Below, one piece after another: positions 3,001 through 63,789 of a stretch of 64,000 nucleotides of DNA (positions are counted from its first letter, which is position 1; every line of letters starts with the position of its first letter). The translations under genes were made by a program, and so were the position numbers. The stretch is from Zootoca vivipara (taxonomy: Eukaryota), in NCBI RefSeq assembly GCF_963506605.1, contig NC_083290.1, forward strand, positions 682,001-746,000. The letters are read 5' to 3'. Below the pieces are notes generated by a model that was given only the letters and a program-made list of their open reading frames with translations, was not told the origin of the DNA and searched no databases.

Positions 3001-4407
3001 CATCCTCATTAAAAGGTTCTTTAATTCCTCCTCACTTTCTGCCATCAAGGTTGTGTCATCTGCATATCTGAGGTTGCTGATATTTCTTCCGGCAATCTTA
3101 ATTCCTGCTTTGGATTCATCTAGTCCAGCCTTTCGCATGATGAATTCTGCATATAAGTTAAATAAGCAGGGAGACAATATACAACCTTGTCGTACTCCTT
3201 TCCCAATTTTGAACCAGTCAGTTATTCCGTATCCGGTTCTAACTGTAGCTTCTTGTCCCACATAGAGATCTCTCAGGAGACAGATGAGGTGATCAGGCAC
3301 TCCCATTTCTTTAAGAACTTGCCATAGTTTGCTGTGGTCGACACAGTCAAAGGCTTTTGCATAGTCAATGAAGCAGAAGTAGACGTTTTTCTGGAACTCT
3401 CTAGCTTTCTCCATAATCCAGCGCATGTTTGCTATTTGGTCTCTGGTTCCTCTGCCCTTTCGAAATCCAGCTTGCACTTCTGGGAGTTCTCGGTCCACAT
3501 ACTGCCTAAGCCTGCCTTGTAGAATTTTTAAGCATAACCTTGCTAGCGTGTGAAATGAGCGCAATTGTGCGGTAGTTGGAGCATTCTTTGGCACTGCCCT
3601 TCTTTGGAATTGGGATGTAGACTGATCTTCTCCAATCCTCTGGCCATTGCTGAGTTTTCCAAACTTGCTGGCATATTGGGTGTAGCACCTTAACAGCATC
3701 ATCTTTTAAAATTTTAAATAGTTCAGCTGGAATATCATCACTTCCACTGGCCTTGTTATTAGCAGTGCTTTCTAAGGCCCATTTGACGTCACTCTCCAGG
3801 ATGTCTGGCTCAAGGTCAGCAACCACACTACCTGGGGTGTACGAGACATACCTATGAGCAGCTTAACAGGGTATACCCATTTGGCAACTGTTCATGCGAG
3901 AATTTTGGGGGGATCCCGATCAGAGCCCTTGTGGAATTTCCTAGGCCTCAATGGATACCCTCACCTCCACTTTGGATACAGCCAGAAATCGTTGGAATGT
4001 GGGGGAGGGGGTCATCCTGAAAAGGTAAGACCCCTCCCCCCATTCCCCACCAGTACCCTCAAGCCCCTCTTCCCAGCTGTGCCCCCGACCCCACACAAGC
4101 CCCTCCCCTCCCACAAGCCCCTCCCCCTCCCACAAGCCCCTCCCTCCTCGAAGCCCCTCCCTCTGCCGTGGCCCCTCCTCCTCTCCGCTCACCGTGAGGA
4201 AAGGGCCCTCCTGGGGATCAGGCCAGGCCACGCCCACAGGCTCGTCCCGCGCGCCGCCCCTCGCAGCGCCGCCGCTCCTCCGCAGGGCAGCCCTGAGCCG
4301 CACGAAGACGACGACGACGACGACGAGGAGGCCCTGGCCCGGCTTAGCGCCACGGCCGCCCAGCACCGGCTTCGGGCCGCTGCCGCCGCGCAGGCCGCTG
4401 ATGCCAT
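1..4407 (-). CDS. POLDIP2: Polymerase delta-interacting protein 2, 5' part. Coding exons 4407-4193, 1023-942 and 14-1 (exon 3 runs off the window edge).
   Basis: Spliced translation MASAACAAAAARSRCW...RRALSSR|NRPEGKVLETVGVFEVPKQHGKYDTGQ|LFLH matches the POLDIP2 N-terminus. Donors are at 4192 (GTGAG) and 941 (GTAAG), acceptors at 1024 and 15, and phases are compatible. Head-to-head with TMEM199 as in other amniotes. Confidence 0.96.
246..593 (+). mobile_element. CR1 LINE 3' fragment
   Basis: ORF2 C-terminus [11 protein letters not shown]...[23 protein letters not shown] followed by an (ATTCTATG)n tail. Confidence 0.9.
2289..3850 (-). mobile_element. RTE-BovB LINE, 5'-truncated and frameshifted
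   Basis: RT peptides QAGFRKGRGTRDQIAN, FIDYAKAFD, GVRQGCILSP and LRYADD are split over several frames; (CAA)n tail. Confidence 0.95.
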
Positions 4408-8100: not shown

Positions 8101-11100
8101 AGAAATCCTGCTCATTTTAATTTCAGGCAAGTTGATATTGTGGGGGGGGGGGCAAGAGTCACAGAGAGAAGGGAGTTGAAGAGACAGCACAAGGTAGAAG
8201 AAAGAGCAGAGCAAAAAAGGAAAGGGAGACAGAGAAGATGCTGAGAGAAAGGGCAGAAATGTTTGAGGAGATAAAGAGGGCCTAAATAGGAGATAAAGAG
8301 CCTGATGGATCAGGTCAGTGCCCATCTAGCCCAGGATCCTGCTCTCAGAGTCGCCAGCCAGATGCCTGTGAGAAACCAGCCAGCAGGATTCAAACACAAG
8401 AGCAACTCTCCTCTCCTGTGGTTTCCCGCAACTGGTATTCGGAAGCATTGTTGCTTGTGACAGCGAAGGCAGATCCTAGCCACCCTGGCTAATAACCCTC
8501 AATACCCCTCTATGAGGATGCGGGTGGCGCTGTGGGCTAAACCACTGAGCCCAGGGCTTGCCGATCAGAAGGTCGGCGGTTTGAATCCCTGCGACGGGGT
8601 GAGCTCTTGTTGTTCGGTCCCTCCTCCTGCCAACCTAGCAGTTTGATAGCTCGTCAAAGTGCAAGTAGATAAATAGGTACTGCTCCAGTGGGAAGGTAAA
8701 CGGCGTTTCCGTGCACTGCTCTGGTTCGCCAGAAGCAGCTTAGTCATGCTGGCCACGTGACCCGGAAGCTGCACGCCGGCTCCCTCGGCCAATAAAGCGA
8801 GATGAGCGCCACAACCCCAGAGTCGTCCGCGACTGGACCTAACAGTCAGGGGTCCCTTTACCTTTTAGCCCTCTATGAATTTGCTCAATTCTCTTTCAAT
8901 GCCTTGTGGGAGGGAGTTCCATAGATTAGCTGTGTGCTGAATGAAGAAAGACGTTCTCTCATCTGTCCTGATTCTTCCAGCAGAAAGAAAGAAAGAGGCA
9001 AAAGGCAGGCAGCTGGTGATAGGACTGTGAAGGAAGACGAGATGAACGAGACAACAGATAAAGGATTGAGAAAGTGCAAGGAGGAGTCACAGATGGAGGG
9101 CAAAAAGTGCAAGGAAGAAGGTAGAGAGGAAAAGGCACCAGCAGGCGACAGATGGGTTGGTCTCTGGCTTTAGGGGTTGGACTAGATGACCCCAGAGGTC
9201 CCTTCCAACTCTGCAACTCCATGAGAAAGAAAGAAAGGCAGGGAAGGTTATGGAAAGAGAGAGAGAGAGAGAGAAGCTTTTTGTTGCTGTTAAGGAAAGG
9301 CAGACATAATGGTGGTGATGACTTGTCCTCTAGCTCAGTATCAACCACGGGCATAGAGAAGACGATAGAACTATGAAAAGGGTTCAGAGGTTTTGGCCAA
9401 CTATTAAATGAAAGATGGGTTTACTTGGTTCCAACTACTACATATAATATTGGGGGGGAAAACAATAGCATGCCAGTACCGCAATGTGGGTAATATGTGG
9501 TGAAACTCCAGCACTGTTAAGTTAAAATTGAAAGTAAGAATGGGTCCAATGTTCCTGTTTGGGGGTCAGAGGTCTGGACTGGTCGGGTCTGGACTGGTTA
9601 AAGACCAACAGGTGTAGACAATACGAAGCTCTAGGGAACCATGTTCCAACTTGTATTGTGGCAGCTGCCTCTGTTCCTGTTGAAAGCCAGTCCCTTTGGT
9701 CAGAGCCATGAGGGCTGTTAGGGGAAGGGCTGCGTGTCCCTGGCAGAGCCCCCACTTTCCATGCCTATGGCCCCAGGTTCAATTCCACAACGTCCCCAGG
9801 TTGGGCTGGGAAGGAGCCCCTGCCTGAGCGCCTGGAGAGCCACTTCTGCCGGTCAGGGCAGGCCACACTGAACTGGATGGCCCTATTTGCTTATTTCATA
9901 ACGTTTACACGCTGCTTGATTGTAAAAGAACCCCCAAATTCGCAAGTTAAAACTTTCAATAACAATTGACTAAAAACTAGCGTAGGCTTGTCTAAAGAAT
10001 GTTTTTTAGCAGGCGCTGAAGAGAGCACAGGGAAGGCAAACTCCTTGATATCAACAGGCAGGGAGTTCCCAAGTTTCCAATGTTCTAACCCAGTATATAG
10101 CAGCTTCCTGTGATGCGCGAGGAGGAGTACAGCAGTGGGGTAATGAGGTGGGCAGAACTCATTTCAGAGGGGCAGGAGATTCCTTTTCCTTCTTTGGGTT
10201 TCAGTCATAGGGAATGGACCTTGCTGGGCCTGTGTCACACACACTGCCTCTGCTTTTCCCAGTGAGGTCCACCAAAGCCTTGGTTGTCACCATCGTCAAC
10301 TTCCTGGTCACGGTGGGGGCCACATTTGCCTGCACCTACCTGGGCTCCCAGTACGTCTTCGTGGAAATGGCACCGGTGAGTGGCAGCTGGGCCAGGGGGG
10401 GGGACTGTGCAGGGGACAGGGAGAGACTTAAGGAAAACTCTGGGTATTCCATGGGTGGGGGTGAGGGGCAGCTCTCTTGAACAACGTAGAGGTCAACATT
10501 TCCAAGGACATTGAGAAGCTGGAACAGGGCAGCCAAGATGGTGAAGGGTCTGGAGACAAAGCCTGATGAGGAACAGTTGAAGGAGCTAAAATAAAAAAAT
10601 TCCTTCAGTAGCACCTTAAAGACCAACTAAGTTTTTATTTTGGTATGAGCTTTCGTGTGCATGCACACTTCTTCAGATACAGTGAAATGGAAGTTGAAGG
10701 AGCTGGTGATGTGTAGCCTGGAGAAGAAGAGATAGGAGAGTCATCTTCAAATATCTCAAGGGCTATGGCACAGAAGAGGGAACAAGCTTGCTTTCTCCTC
10801 CTCTGGAGGGTAGGACTCGAACTCATGGCTTCAAGTTACAAGAAGGGAGATGGAAGAACAGTAAGAGCTGTTGAGAGGGGGTGGACTCTCCTTCCTTTCA
10901 GGTTCTTTAGGCAGAGGTTGGATGGCCACCTGTCTTGGATGCTTTAGCTGAGATCCCTGCATTGCAGGGGGCTGGATGACCCTTGGGGGCCCTTTCCAAC
11001 TCTACAAGCCTATGATCCTGCAATTCCTCCCACTAGTGCATTTTTATGTAAAAGGGGGAGGGGAAGCCTTTAGTTCTGAATCCAAAAAAGGCAAAGGTTC

Positions 11101-11359
11101 TGACTCTAACGCTAGATGCACCCCCCAAAAGAGTACAGATTAGCCCTGACCCCCCCCCAAAAAAAAGTCCAGAGCAGAAGCAAGGCAGGATGTCTTTTAA
11201 CTGCAACTCACCTGGCAGAGGCGTCTGAGGCTGAGCTGACTTCCTTTCCCCTCTTCCTTCCAGCGTGTCCTGTCAGCCGTGGTTGTGGCCTCCGTCGTGG
11301 GCTTGGCTGAGCTCTACGTGATGGTTCGGAACCTGGAAGGAGAACTGGGGGAGCCCTAG
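4912..11359 (+). CDS. TMEM199: TMEM199 / VMA12 V-ATPase assembly factor, ~195 aa. Exons 4912-5083, 6154-6227, 6457-6546, 7381-7423, 10263-10375, 11264-11359.
   Basis: Contains [45 protein letters not shown], two TM segments ([23 protein letters not shown]; [21 protein letters not shown]) and ends LEGELGEP*. All introns GT-AG; 588 nt in frame. An in-frame upstream ATG lies at 4891. Confidence 0.96.
6927..7062. mobile_element. hAT-type MITE
   Basis: TIRs CAGGCATCCCC...GGGGATGCCTG with a perfect 8-bp TSD AACTAGAT (6919-6926 / 7063-7070). Confidence 0.9.
8516..8868 (+). mobile_element. Sauria SINE, full length
   Basis: tRNA-like head GGTGGCGCTGTGGG...GGTTTGAATCCC and CCTTTA tail. 10-bp TSD CCCTCTATGA (8506-8515 / 8869-8878). 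Inserted into an older CR1 tail. Confidence 0.9.
10588..10691 (-). mobile_element. Penelope-like element fragment inserted in a CR1 remnant
   Basis: 13-bp direct repeat AGTTGAAGGAGCT (10575-10587 / 10692-10704). Same family as 25540-26060. Carries a hammerhead motif. Confidence 0.75.
10643..10680 (-). ncRNA. Candidate minimal type-I hammerhead ribozyme
   Basis: GUAU-CUGAAGA-A-GUGUGCAUGCACAC-GAAA-GC-UC/AUAC: full catalytic core, 4-bp stem I, palindromic stem II and a palindromic AGCU mini helix III. Confidence 0.65.
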
Positions 11360-11990
11360 CCAAGGAGCCCTTCCTGGCTGGCCTTTCTCTCGGCCTGCTC
11401 TCTCCGCCCTTCATCCTTGCTGCTCCCCACTCATGGCCAGGGAGGCAGGGTCAGCCACCAGAGGCCGCCGGCCGATCCCAGTACAAACCACCAAGGAGGA
11501 GCAGGACCTTCTCTCTGCAACTTCTTCCTCCCGCAGCTACGTACAAGTGGGCTCTTTTTCCTTCCCCTGAGGTGCTGTGAAAAGCCTTTCCCCAACAGGC
11601 CTCCCTTTTCTCTGGCACAAATAATCTGGTGTGTTTACAGTGGTGTGGGTTTTTTCCCCCTGCAGGCACTGAAGCTGGACTAGGGGATAGGGGTGGGGGA
11701 AGCAACTTCACACCAACAGGAGAAGATTTCTCTTTGTGCATCTGTCACACCCACAAGCTGCAAGGTTGCTGTTCCCAAAGAGTTGGCCACCTGAGCAAGA
11801 GCGATTACTTTTGTTGCCCTTTGGCAAACACAAAGGGACACACCATTTTGCTGTTACACCAAGCCCGGCAAGCAACTGTGAAAGGCCGCATCCTATCCCT
11901 TACAGTTTGGAGGTGCTTCCCCCCCCCCTCCGCAAACCGCCATCCTCCGGGTGTCGTCTTAATGTATAGAAATCAACCTTTGTTATGTGC

Positions 11991-11996
11991 AATAAA
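11991..11996 (+). terminator. Likely TMEM199 polyadenylation signal
   Basis: AATAAA ~630 nt after the stop codon. Confidence 0.6.
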
Positions 11997-12400
11997 CGGA
12001 TCAAAATCTGTTGAAGCTGCAACTCAGGCAGGTCTCTAGCAGCAGGTGGGGGGAGGTTGTGGGGGGAGAGGGGAAGGCTAGAAATTCTCATTGATGAAGG
12101 GATTGTAGATGGAGGAATTTGCTATGTAATGGTGACCAGTATATTATATGGGATAACAAACTGTGTTTTGGGGCTGGAGGGGTGAGCTTTTGTCCCGTTT
12201 TAGATCCCGAGAAGCAAAATAATTGTATGCTTCACCTTCGTTGGAAGATTCGGGACAGGCAAAAGAAAGTCATGGTTGAAACTATGGAACTTGCTCCTGC
12301 AAGAGGCAAGGATGCCCATCCACTTGGATGGCTTTAAATGGGGATTAGGCAAATTCAGAGGAGGCTCTCATGATGGCTGTGCTCTTGAGAGGCGGTAATG

Positions 12401-12618
12401 CTTCTCGGTAGTGGCGCCCGCCCTGTGGAACGCCCTCCCACCAGATGTCAAAAAGAAAAATAGCTACCAGACTTTTAGAGGACATCTGAAGGCAGCCCTG
12501 TTTAGGGAAGCTTTTAGTCTTTAAGAAATTAGTGTGTTTTAATATTTCTGTTGGAAGCCGCCCAGAGTGGCTGGGGAAACCCAGCCAGATGGGCGGGGTA
12601 TAAATAATAATAATAATA

Positions 12619-17197: not shown

Positions 17198-18681
17198 CGT
17201 GGCGGCGGCTCCTGCCTGCGGCTGCTCCGGCTGGCCGTCTAGCTTTTATCACCTCCCTTCGGAGACCGAGCAGCGTCATTCCACCCCCACCCCCACCCCC
17301 TCGGGCGGGCTCACATCTGGGACCAGCCCCGCCACCTGACGCAGTTCGGGCACCTGGAGACGGGAGGGGGAAGAGGGAGGCCCGTCGGGTCGAAGCGCGG
17401 GCGGCGCGGGAGCTGTCCTTGGTCCTGAAGTACCCGCCTCGGACAGCGCCTCGTCTAGGGACCAGCCTGGGATCCCGCCGAAGAGGTGCGGGGGCTCAGG
17501 AGTTTTCCCGGAGTCCAACTTCTCTGGCACACGCAAGAGGCCTGTCTTTAGAGAGGCAGTGTGGTGTAGCGGTTAGAACCAGGGCCTGGGAAACCAGGTT
17601 CAAATCTGCACTCTGCCATGAAGCTCACGTTTATGGAGACAGATGAAAGGATAGCTTCTCTGGTTAGAGGTTGTAGGTTCCATCCCCGTATGGGATGGCT
17701 GCATATTCCTACATTGCAGAGGGTTGGACTAGACGATCCTTCCAACTCTATGATTCTAAGTCCACACAGCACAGAGTTAAAGCGCGGAACTCCCTCCCAC
17801 TGGAAGCAGTGATGGGCACCAACTTGGATGTTTTTAAAATAGGATTGGGCAAATTCATGGAGGAGGAGAAGGAGGTTTTCGATGACTCCCTGCCAGGATG
17901 GTGATGCTCTGCCTCCACAGTAGGAGCCAGCGATGCTTCTGAATACCAGAGGGAACCCTGTGCTCAGTTCCTGCCTGTGGGTTTTGCGTTGGGCTGCCCA
18001 CTGTGAGAAGTGGGCCAATGGCCTGATCCAGCAGGCTCTACTGGTGTCGTTATGAGGGCCAAACACTTAACGTGCAGCTCTGGCCCCCATGCATTTATTT
18101 ACTCCCAGAGCTAAACCTGAGTTCAGCACTCCATAGTTCGTGTGCATGGAATATGCCTGGCAGAGTGATTCCCAGCAGCGTCTGCTTCAACAGCAAAGCC
18201 CCGCTTACTTCCGAGGAAGTGGGCATAGGATTGCAGACTAAACCCTGTGTCGTGTCCCCATTATATCTGATTGATCTGCCCCATAAAAAGCCCTTCATAT
18301 TATGTACTATTAAAGCTGGAAGAGACACTTCAGAGGCCATAGAATCCCAGAAATGTAGTCGGGGTCCCTACCAAGGGTCATCAATCTAGCCCAACCCCCT
18401 GCAAGGCAGGAATCTCAGCTAAAGCATCCATTGCAGATGCCCACCCAACCTCTGCTAAAAAAAAATCTCCAAGGAAGGAGAGCCCACAACCTCCCGAGGG
18501 AGACCCTTCCACTGTCCACTGTCAGAAAGTTCCTCCTGAAGTTTAGTTAGACTCTCCTTTCTTGCAACTTGAATCCATTGGCTCTGGTTCCCCCTTCCGG
18601 AACAGCTGATAAAAAGGTTGCTCCCACTTTCATGTGGCAGCGCATGAGATATTTGAAGACGGCTCTCAGATCTCCTCTCAG

Positions 18682-18887: not shown

Positions 18888-19436
18888 CAATTGGACTACT
18901 GCAATGCGCTCCACGTGGGGCTACCTTTGAAGGTGACCCGGAAACTGCAATTAATCCAGAATGCGGCAGCTAGACTGGTGACTGGGAGTGGCCGCCGGGA
19001 CCACATAACACCAGTCCTGAGAGATCTACACTGGCTCCCAGTACCTTTCCAAGCACAATTCAAAGTGTTGGTGCTGACCTTTAAAGCCCTAAAGGGCCCC
19101 GGTCCTGTATACCTGAAGGAGCGTCTCCACCCCCATTGTTCTGCCCGGACACTGAGGTCCAGCTCCGAGGGCCTTCTGGCGGTTCCCTTGTTGTGAGAAG
19201 TGAGGTTACAGGGAACCAGACAAAGGGCCTTCTCGGTAGTGGCACCCGCCCTGTGGAACGCCCTCCCAGCAGATGTCAAGGCAATAAGTAACTATTCTAC
19301 TTTCAGAAGACAACGGAAGGCGGCCCTGTTTAGGGAAGTTTTTAATGTTTGATGCTGTACTGTTTTTAATATTCGGTTGGAAGCCGCCCAGAGTGGCTGG
19401 AGAAACCCAGCCAGATGGGCGGGGTATAAATAATAA

Positions 19437-53590: not shown

Positions 53591-53818
53591 NNNNNNNNNN
53601 NNNNNNNNNNNNNNNNNNNNNNNNNNNNNNNNNNNNNNNNNNNNNNNNNNNNNNNNNNNNNNNNNNNNNNNNNNNNNNNNNNNNNNNNNNNNNNNNNNNN
53701 NNNNNNNNNNNNNNNNNNNNNNNNNNNNNNNNNNNNNNNNNNNNNNNNNNNNNNNNNNNNNNNNNNNNNNNNNNNNNNNNNNNNNNNNNNNNNNNNNNNN
53801 NNNNNNNNNNNNNNNNNN
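53591..53818. other. Assembly gap
   Basis: Run of 228 N. Confidence 1.
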
Positions 53819-63380: not shown

Positions 63381-63789
63381 GATAGGGGAAAAATCCTGGG
63401 GTGCAGATTTACTCCCCTGCCCAGCTCGTCGGGGTGCAACTTCCCTCGGATCTCTCTGGGTCAGCAAAAGGAGGAGTCTGTCTCCAGCCAAGCTAAAGAA
63501 GCAAATACTGTACAGTACTACTACTGAAGGAATTGTTTTATTTTACTGTAGTGGTCAGTAGATCTGATTTTTATTTGTTTCAACAAGGTTCGAACACACA
63601 AACAGTAGGAACCCCTGAGCATGGGCTTGCGTGAACTTCTTAAGACCTCTCCCCATTTCCCATAATACATTACATTTTTCAACAGCATCATCGATACATC
63701 ACAAATATGTCACAAAGTGGGAGTGTTTGGCATGTAGAAACATGAGCCCTGTCAATCACCCCAGTTCTTCCCAACACCTTTGGGAAGAT

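Follow-up and report, generated by a model that had tools for sequence, protein, structure and literature searches.

A short insert in an intron of a lizard gene carries what reads as a complete minimal hammerhead ribozyme. The question raised by this locus is whether the insert is a small mobile unit in its own right or a fragment of something larger, and whether its ribozyme is used there. The window referred to below is the whole stretch of DNA analysed, 64 kb in length.

Identification of the insert

The insert occupies 104 bases at 10588-10691, on the minus strand. It is flanked by a perfect 13-bp duplication, AGTTGAAGGAGCT, which on the plus strand lies at 10575-10587 (beside the 3' end of the element) and at 10692-10704 (beside its 5' end); repeat comparison found the two copies 100% identical, as an earlier interpretation made from the letters alone (the sequence-only reading) had stated. 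Because this duplication flanks the insert, an insertion event is inferred. Break positions in the family are given below on the ruler of locus L054, on which the insert corresponds to 3566-3669. The 104-mer was present letter for letter in 6 of the 10 loci with long open reading frames (ORFs). The match to the parent element spans 109 nt (10695-10587) at 100% identity, and takes in 4 bases from one copy of the repeat and a single base from its partner, so the 5' edge of the insert is uncertain by 4 nt. The bases at 10692-10695 fit the element equally well and form a 4-nt microhomology at the 5' junction.

The sequence-only reading had left two options for the insert, a truncated terminus of a Penelope-like element (PLE) or a tiny ribozyme-bearing mobile unit, and had called the insertion probably recent. 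The first option is borne out by the exact identity of the insert to the end of full-length elements encoding a reverse transcriptase (RT) and a GIY-YIG endonuclease. The second is not supported, as genomic copies do not repeat the 104-bp boundary as a unit. There were zero differences between the insert and copies with an intact ORF, in agreement with a recent event. The motif is real, and the insertion that holds it is ordinary: 5'-truncated, from a type of element already known.

The parent element and its family

Genome copies were counted by exact pattern matching. The 34-nt hammerhead stretch matched exactly at 17,230 places in the 1.44-Gb genome, and the 33-nt stretch downstream at 19,001, with no match for the reversed control of either; the copy-number search that the sequence-only reading had proposed thus found both parts of the insert to be very abundant. 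In longer copies the upstream sequence runs into the end of a GIY-YIG ORF, and a search at the protein level showed tandem long open frames spaced 3,030 bp apart. The link to RT and GIY-YIG ORFs suggested earlier was also found, with all 104 bases unchanged at the end of these 3,030-bp elements. The tandem units, with the same 3,030-bp period, form pseudo-LTRs (pLTRs) that hold the hammerhead, which was present on both sides of the intact ORF in 7 of the 10 long-ORF loci.

The parent ORF (P0001, 901 aa) matched RVT_1 (E 4e-12) and GIY-YIG (E 6e-5), both above the Pfam cut-offs, and contained the motifs DKG and YIDD. A single ORF with an RT plus a C-terminal GIY-YIG endonuclease is the organisation of EN+ Penelope-like elements. 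Between the two domains, at residue 761, lies a CX4CxxC linker (CNKPRCQLC). The endonuclease shows CQQC and two later His residues, and a spacing pattern for CCHH, an endonuclease motif of Neptune, applied without a reference alignment, gave no match. According to PMC8557442, a CX2-5CxxC linker marks Neptune elements, and is reduced in Nematis and lost in Penelope and Poseidon. The parent is therefore placed as Neptune type, by motifs and not by a tree, a placement that does not formally exclude Nematis. Seven parent ORFs differed at 0-21 of 2,706 bases; by this near-identity the family is young and likely active. A search of titles and abstracts returned no paper on this family, which may be catalogued in repeat databases or listed in the supplements of the papers cited here.

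Many inverted 5'-truncated copies form head-to-head pairs, and a one-sided tail of 30-40 bp was present. Two identical intact ORFs lie in opposite orientation, with partial tandems, on contig C9 at about 19.33-19.34 Mb (L055 and L056). An 11-codon open frame starts at an ATG in stem II of the hammerhead (L054:3597-3632) and stops before the main ORF; this ATG sits where the ORF of the anole Poseidon element starts. Some PLEs have an intron in their 5' region. An intron from stem II to an acceptor-like site before the tail was considered, and is unsupported by genomic matches and RNA joints: no recurring spliced junction was seen at the candidate acceptor in the first 100 of 200 matches inspected by eye, and none of the RNA joints shown was a spliced joint of the element, at an ORF depth of 0-11.

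Copy ends and the origin of the insert

Copy ends were surveyed within the first 3.5 Mb of contig C1, at 90 of the 100 places listed as anchor matches; each half of an inverted pair and each tandem unit counted as its own segment, so the 90 segments are not all independent. The 3' ends were bimodal, with 43 of 90 at 3657-3674 (short), 43 of 90 at 3701-3713 (with a tail of about 35-40 nt) and 4 of 90 reading on. This pattern matches the two internal reverse-transcription starts described, together with a tail, for the anole element in PMC11167929. The window copy has the short end, one of the two usual in the family. A duplication of 12-16 nt was found in 63 of the 90 segments, compared with 3 of 440 controls having 12 nt or more, so the 13 bp at the window copy are ordinary.

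Identity to intact elements, a usual 3' end, a usual duplication length and the 4-nt junction microhomology are the evidence for the insertion. We consider it very probable that the insert represents the final 104 bases of an abundant Neptune-type element, 5'-truncated and placed by the RT and endonuclease of that element. The enzymatic steps are drawn from the sequence marks and the literature. The endonuclease would have made a staggered cut, 13 bp apart. Reverse transcription would have started at the U-rich one of two internal start sites, which would leave the window copy without a tail, and would have passed through the uncut hammerhead and halted 11-15 nt before stem I. The hammerhead would then be a passenger in the window copy.

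It is very improbable that the insert instead comes from a distinct family of non-autonomous 104-bp elements, SINE- or retrozyme-like, which would be transcribed and move as one unit. Short copies abound, with 36 of 90 segments starting within 3571-3602, they dominate the RNA reads, and a preprint (10.64898/2026.07.22.740005) derives retrozymes from PLEs. An array of four 598-bp units, each with a hammerhead, is also present (L031:4320-6742; contig C1, about 2,777,300-2,779,750). However, the insert has no private changes relative to the autonomous element, and the window copy lacks the TATA-like box described below. Genome-wide, only 34 copies, the window copy included, break within the 6-nt stretch 3561-3566, at varied points, while 1,795 continue upstream, which argues that there is no 104-bp unit. 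In three raw RNA runs, 85-92% of the reads extend into unrelated sequence, as host transcripts do. The idea of a separate family is largely refuted already. The 598-bp array arose by joining of the ORF start to the endonuclease end. It is retrozyme-like, and is the best natural place to look for dimer cleavage.

A predicted RNA start and the short copies

Upstream comparison of 60 copies identified an initiator-like TTTCA at 3570-3574 and, about 35 nt ahead of the core, a TATA-like box. In the window copy the initiator-like TTTCACT of this predicted promoter lies at 10681-10687 (minus strand); the TATA-like box, 28 nt upstream of TTTCACT in the element, is absent from it. The pair is kept in subfamilies although the sequence between has diverged, and the same TATA/initiator pair is carried by a rotifer pLTR in PMC3846280.

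With subfamilies allowed for, 22 of the 90 segments start at 3571-3582, the front edge of the hammerhead, and 14 at 3583-3602, compared with 4 at 3550-3570 and 17 at 3400-3549. The 5' starts are placed to within a few bases, and one or more of the 90 segments is an internal deletion. Part of an initial pile-up of 5' ends at 3570/3576 came from subfamily divergence; 35 ORF-linked references served for the recount. Going by these starts and the TATA/initiator-like pair beside them, the simplest reading is that a good many of the short copies probably ran off at the start of the RNA. A rival explanation is stalling or fold-back at the hairpin; 14 of the 36 segments starting at 3571-3602 join inverted element sequence. 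Since the window copy itself starts 8-12 nt upstream of the predicted RNA start, its more likely source is a longer transcript, by way of the downstream repeat.

A broader proposal, to which we give an even chance, is that RNA starts about 3 nt before the hammerhead at the TATA/initiator pair and that reverse transcription begins within the same 5' leader, so that the autonomous element would mass-produce SINE-like stumps of about 95 and 130 bp with an uncut ribozyme. If true, the message would open with the hammerhead, which would have some target other than the insertion template, and intact ribozyme cores would be present in thousands of host transcripts.

The hammerhead motif

The minus strand of 10680-10643 reads GUAU CUGAAGA A GUGUGCAUGCACAC GAAA GC UC^AUAC, exactly as first reported. 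Its parts are a 4-bp stem I, CUGAAGA, an extra A, stem II, GAAA, GC and UC. A CUGANGA and GAAA core, a UH cut site, an extra base after A9 and a G10.1-C11.1 pair make it a minimal type-I hammerhead that agrees with the description in PMC4209133 for each trait given there, and the isolated motif is predicted to fold with stems I and II. The proposed cleavage between 10647 and 10646 fits the motif position, after C17 (3610/3611 on the L054 ruler). Stem II, said to be self-complementary, is a perfect 14-nt palindrome (10655-10668). The core pattern had 1 match in the 64-kb window and 0 in 100 shuffles. A covariance-model scan, named earlier as a check, did not recover the motif: Rfam reported no hammerhead family up to E=10 over 9000-12500.

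In a model without Mg2+, tertiary contacts or proteins, the probability of stem I was at most 0.03 once at least 30 nt of window flank were included. Under the same restrictions the active-type dimer scored -11.1 kcal/mol, two monomers -13.6 and a duplex of the two stems II -30.6. The stem II palindrome is thus predicted to favour a competing duplex between two copies.

Among 110 fetched copies of the same family (at most 4 substitutions), N7 differed in 15, G12 (a CpG) in 3, and C3 and G8 in 1 each; the remaining core bases did not differ. Stem covariation, the other check named earlier, was found across families: in 10 motifs of several families 91% of cells were paired, compared with 77.6% when shuffled, and compensatory changes occurred in both stems, with 6 pairs altered on both sides. 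These 10 motifs were hand-picked by the core pattern, so core invariance is built into the set. Within the young family, a double change at the one pair tested occurred in 2 copies only. The pattern suggests that the hammerhead is probably constrained in master elements, and says nothing on the window copy.

Genome-wide, a hammerhead pattern search gave 169 matches, many of which are indel variants of the main family; the control gave 6. Older hammerhead families with a different stem II and downstream sequence were found at six loci (L138, L139, L148, L155, L160 and L162).

Host gene and neighbourhood

The exon upstream of the insertion (10263-10375, plus strand) matches Pfam Vma12 (E 1.8e-4, below the curated cut-off) and is assigned to the Vma12/TMEM199 family; it joins in frame with the last coding exon (11264-11359, plus strand). 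The last coding intron (10376-11263) is 888 bp long, and the insert sits 212 bp into it. With the motif on the minus strand and the Vma12-family exons on the plus strand, the insert is antisense to the host gene, in line with the sequence-only reading. We take the host gene to be TMEM199 and its neighbour, a homeobox gene on the minus strand near 16.6-17.2 kb, to be SEBOX.

On the host sense strand, the insert provides an AATAAA at 10590-10595, identified by motif match. The insert might act through this strand, if the hexamer and a U-rich run about 35 nt downstream formed an intronic poly(A) site that drops the last exon of the host. It is the sole AATAAA or ATTAAA in the 888-bp intron, which suits this idea; against it, the site is a motif match and the same hexamer occurs in thousands of copies, and we regard such an effect as very doubtful. 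None of the indexed RNA runs was listed as containing the window stretch.

A second copy, from a related subfamily, lies in the window at 25539-25716 as a head-to-head pair. Its tailed minus-strand arm has no CUGANGA box, and its plus arm has one extra A after the box and is interrupted by unrelated sequence. A 27-bp remnant of the short 3' end of the element, 96% identical, is found at 63521-63547, and a run of N at 53591-53818.

Is the ribozyme used?

If cut RNA served as the template for insertion, copies would start at 3611. No 5' end at this position was found in the 90 segments. A two-point count by eye gave 29 at 3611 (100 listed of 267) and 13 at 3615 (100 listed of 134), about four times as many junctions for the cut site as for the position 4 nt downstream, with neighbouring positions equally frequent. 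For positions 3607 to 3615 the junction tally was 20, 6, 7, 13, 13, 15, 12, 8 and 6 (first 100 of 290 junction-enriched matches, by eye), and a script run on the first 30 of these 290 matches placed 2 at 3611. With none in 90 segments and a flat tally at 3610-3613 (13, 13, 15, 12), copies starting at the cut site were rejected. The lack of a 5'-end peak there indicates that inserted copies stem mostly from uncut RNA. No pile of RNA ends was seen at the cut site in about 6% of each of the three raw RNA runs, in libraries that show cut ends poorly; depth in these runs was hundreds to thousands over the hammerhead and tail, and 0-11 over the ORF.

In the window copy the hammerhead is most likely silent, because a TATA-like box and a neighbouring partner are both missing and the copy lies antisense to the host gene. 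The sequence-only reading had suggested that it would cut antisense or read-through RNA. Such cleavage is unlikely, because this is a single copy with a helix III of one pair and a stem I predicted to be unformed in context, and because related PLE ribozymes cut poorly or only with the protein of the element. Single minimal hammerheads showed no cleavage (PMC4209133) and the anole PLE hammerhead cut only with the protein of its element (PMC11167929).

An active ribozyme that trims a putative antisense or read-through RNA from the homeobox gene, as a trans-dimer or with the aid of protein, is accordingly rated as extremely improbable. The core, stems and cut triplet are all intact, variation in the family falls at N7 while other core bases are spared, the stems covary across families, and the anole result shows that a PLE hammerhead can cut when the protein is present. 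Against this stand the failure of single motifs to cleave in PMC4209133 and the dimer energies given above; the homeobox exons are also about 6 kb off, past the last exon of the host. A silent passenger remains the preferred account of the window copy.

Significance and comparison with known systems

The window locus is one of more than 17,000 similar copies and matters little alone. The family, with its near-identical intact ORFs, is a usable system for an open question, the role of PLE hammerheads. Its thousands of break points indicate that insertions come mostly from uncut RNA and often end at the predicted RNA start.

The minimal hammerheads of metazoan PLE pLTRs (PMC4209133) resemble the present motif in having a helix I of 4 bp, a long helix II, an additional base between 9 and 10.1, a G10.1-C11.1 pair and palindromic 15.2-16.2, and in occurring mainly as single scattered motifs from truncated PLEs. 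They were reported for turtles and snakes, and the supplementary alignments of that paper may already hold this family. High variability is emphasised in that paper, whereas the stem II found here forms a perfect palindrome that hardly varies within the young family.

PAc, the Poseidon element of the green anole (PMC11167929), resembles the present element in several respects: the RT is joined to a C-terminal GIY-YIG, pLTR-ORF units stand in tandem, the two 3' ends differ by about a tail, insertion uses uncut RNA as its template and the cut site shows no RNA ends. However, the PAc ORF begins in stem II, while the long ORF here has its first ATG 103 nt past the cut site, and the protein here has the CX2-5CxxC linker, which is absent from Poseidon in PMC8557442. 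Neptune, among the EN+ PLEs of the latter paper, has the same Zn-finger-like linker, C-terminal GIY-YIG and hammerhead-bearing pLTR, with partial tandems, inverted 5'-truncated copies and a one-sided tail of 30-40 bp; the present family differs in its clear 12-16 bp duplications, and is assigned to the clade by its motifs. Penelope of Adineta vaga (PMC3846280) likewise has a pLTR in which a TATA box precedes an initiator-like TCACT by about 20 bp, as well as a tail, target-site duplications, 5' microhomology and solo pLTRs, but its duplications are 8-10 bp and its copies few, compared with more than 17,000 here.

Tandem units each with a hammerhead, the mark of retrozymes, were not found in the window, which has one core match in 64 kb, with the nearest related copy about 15 kb from the insert. 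The non-LTR retrozymes of the preprint (10.64898/2026.07.22.740005) are similar in being PLE-derived, with a type-I hammerhead and scattered, often intronic monomers. They are organised as tandem units, whereas the window copy stands alone, a truncation with the same sequence as the autonomous element.
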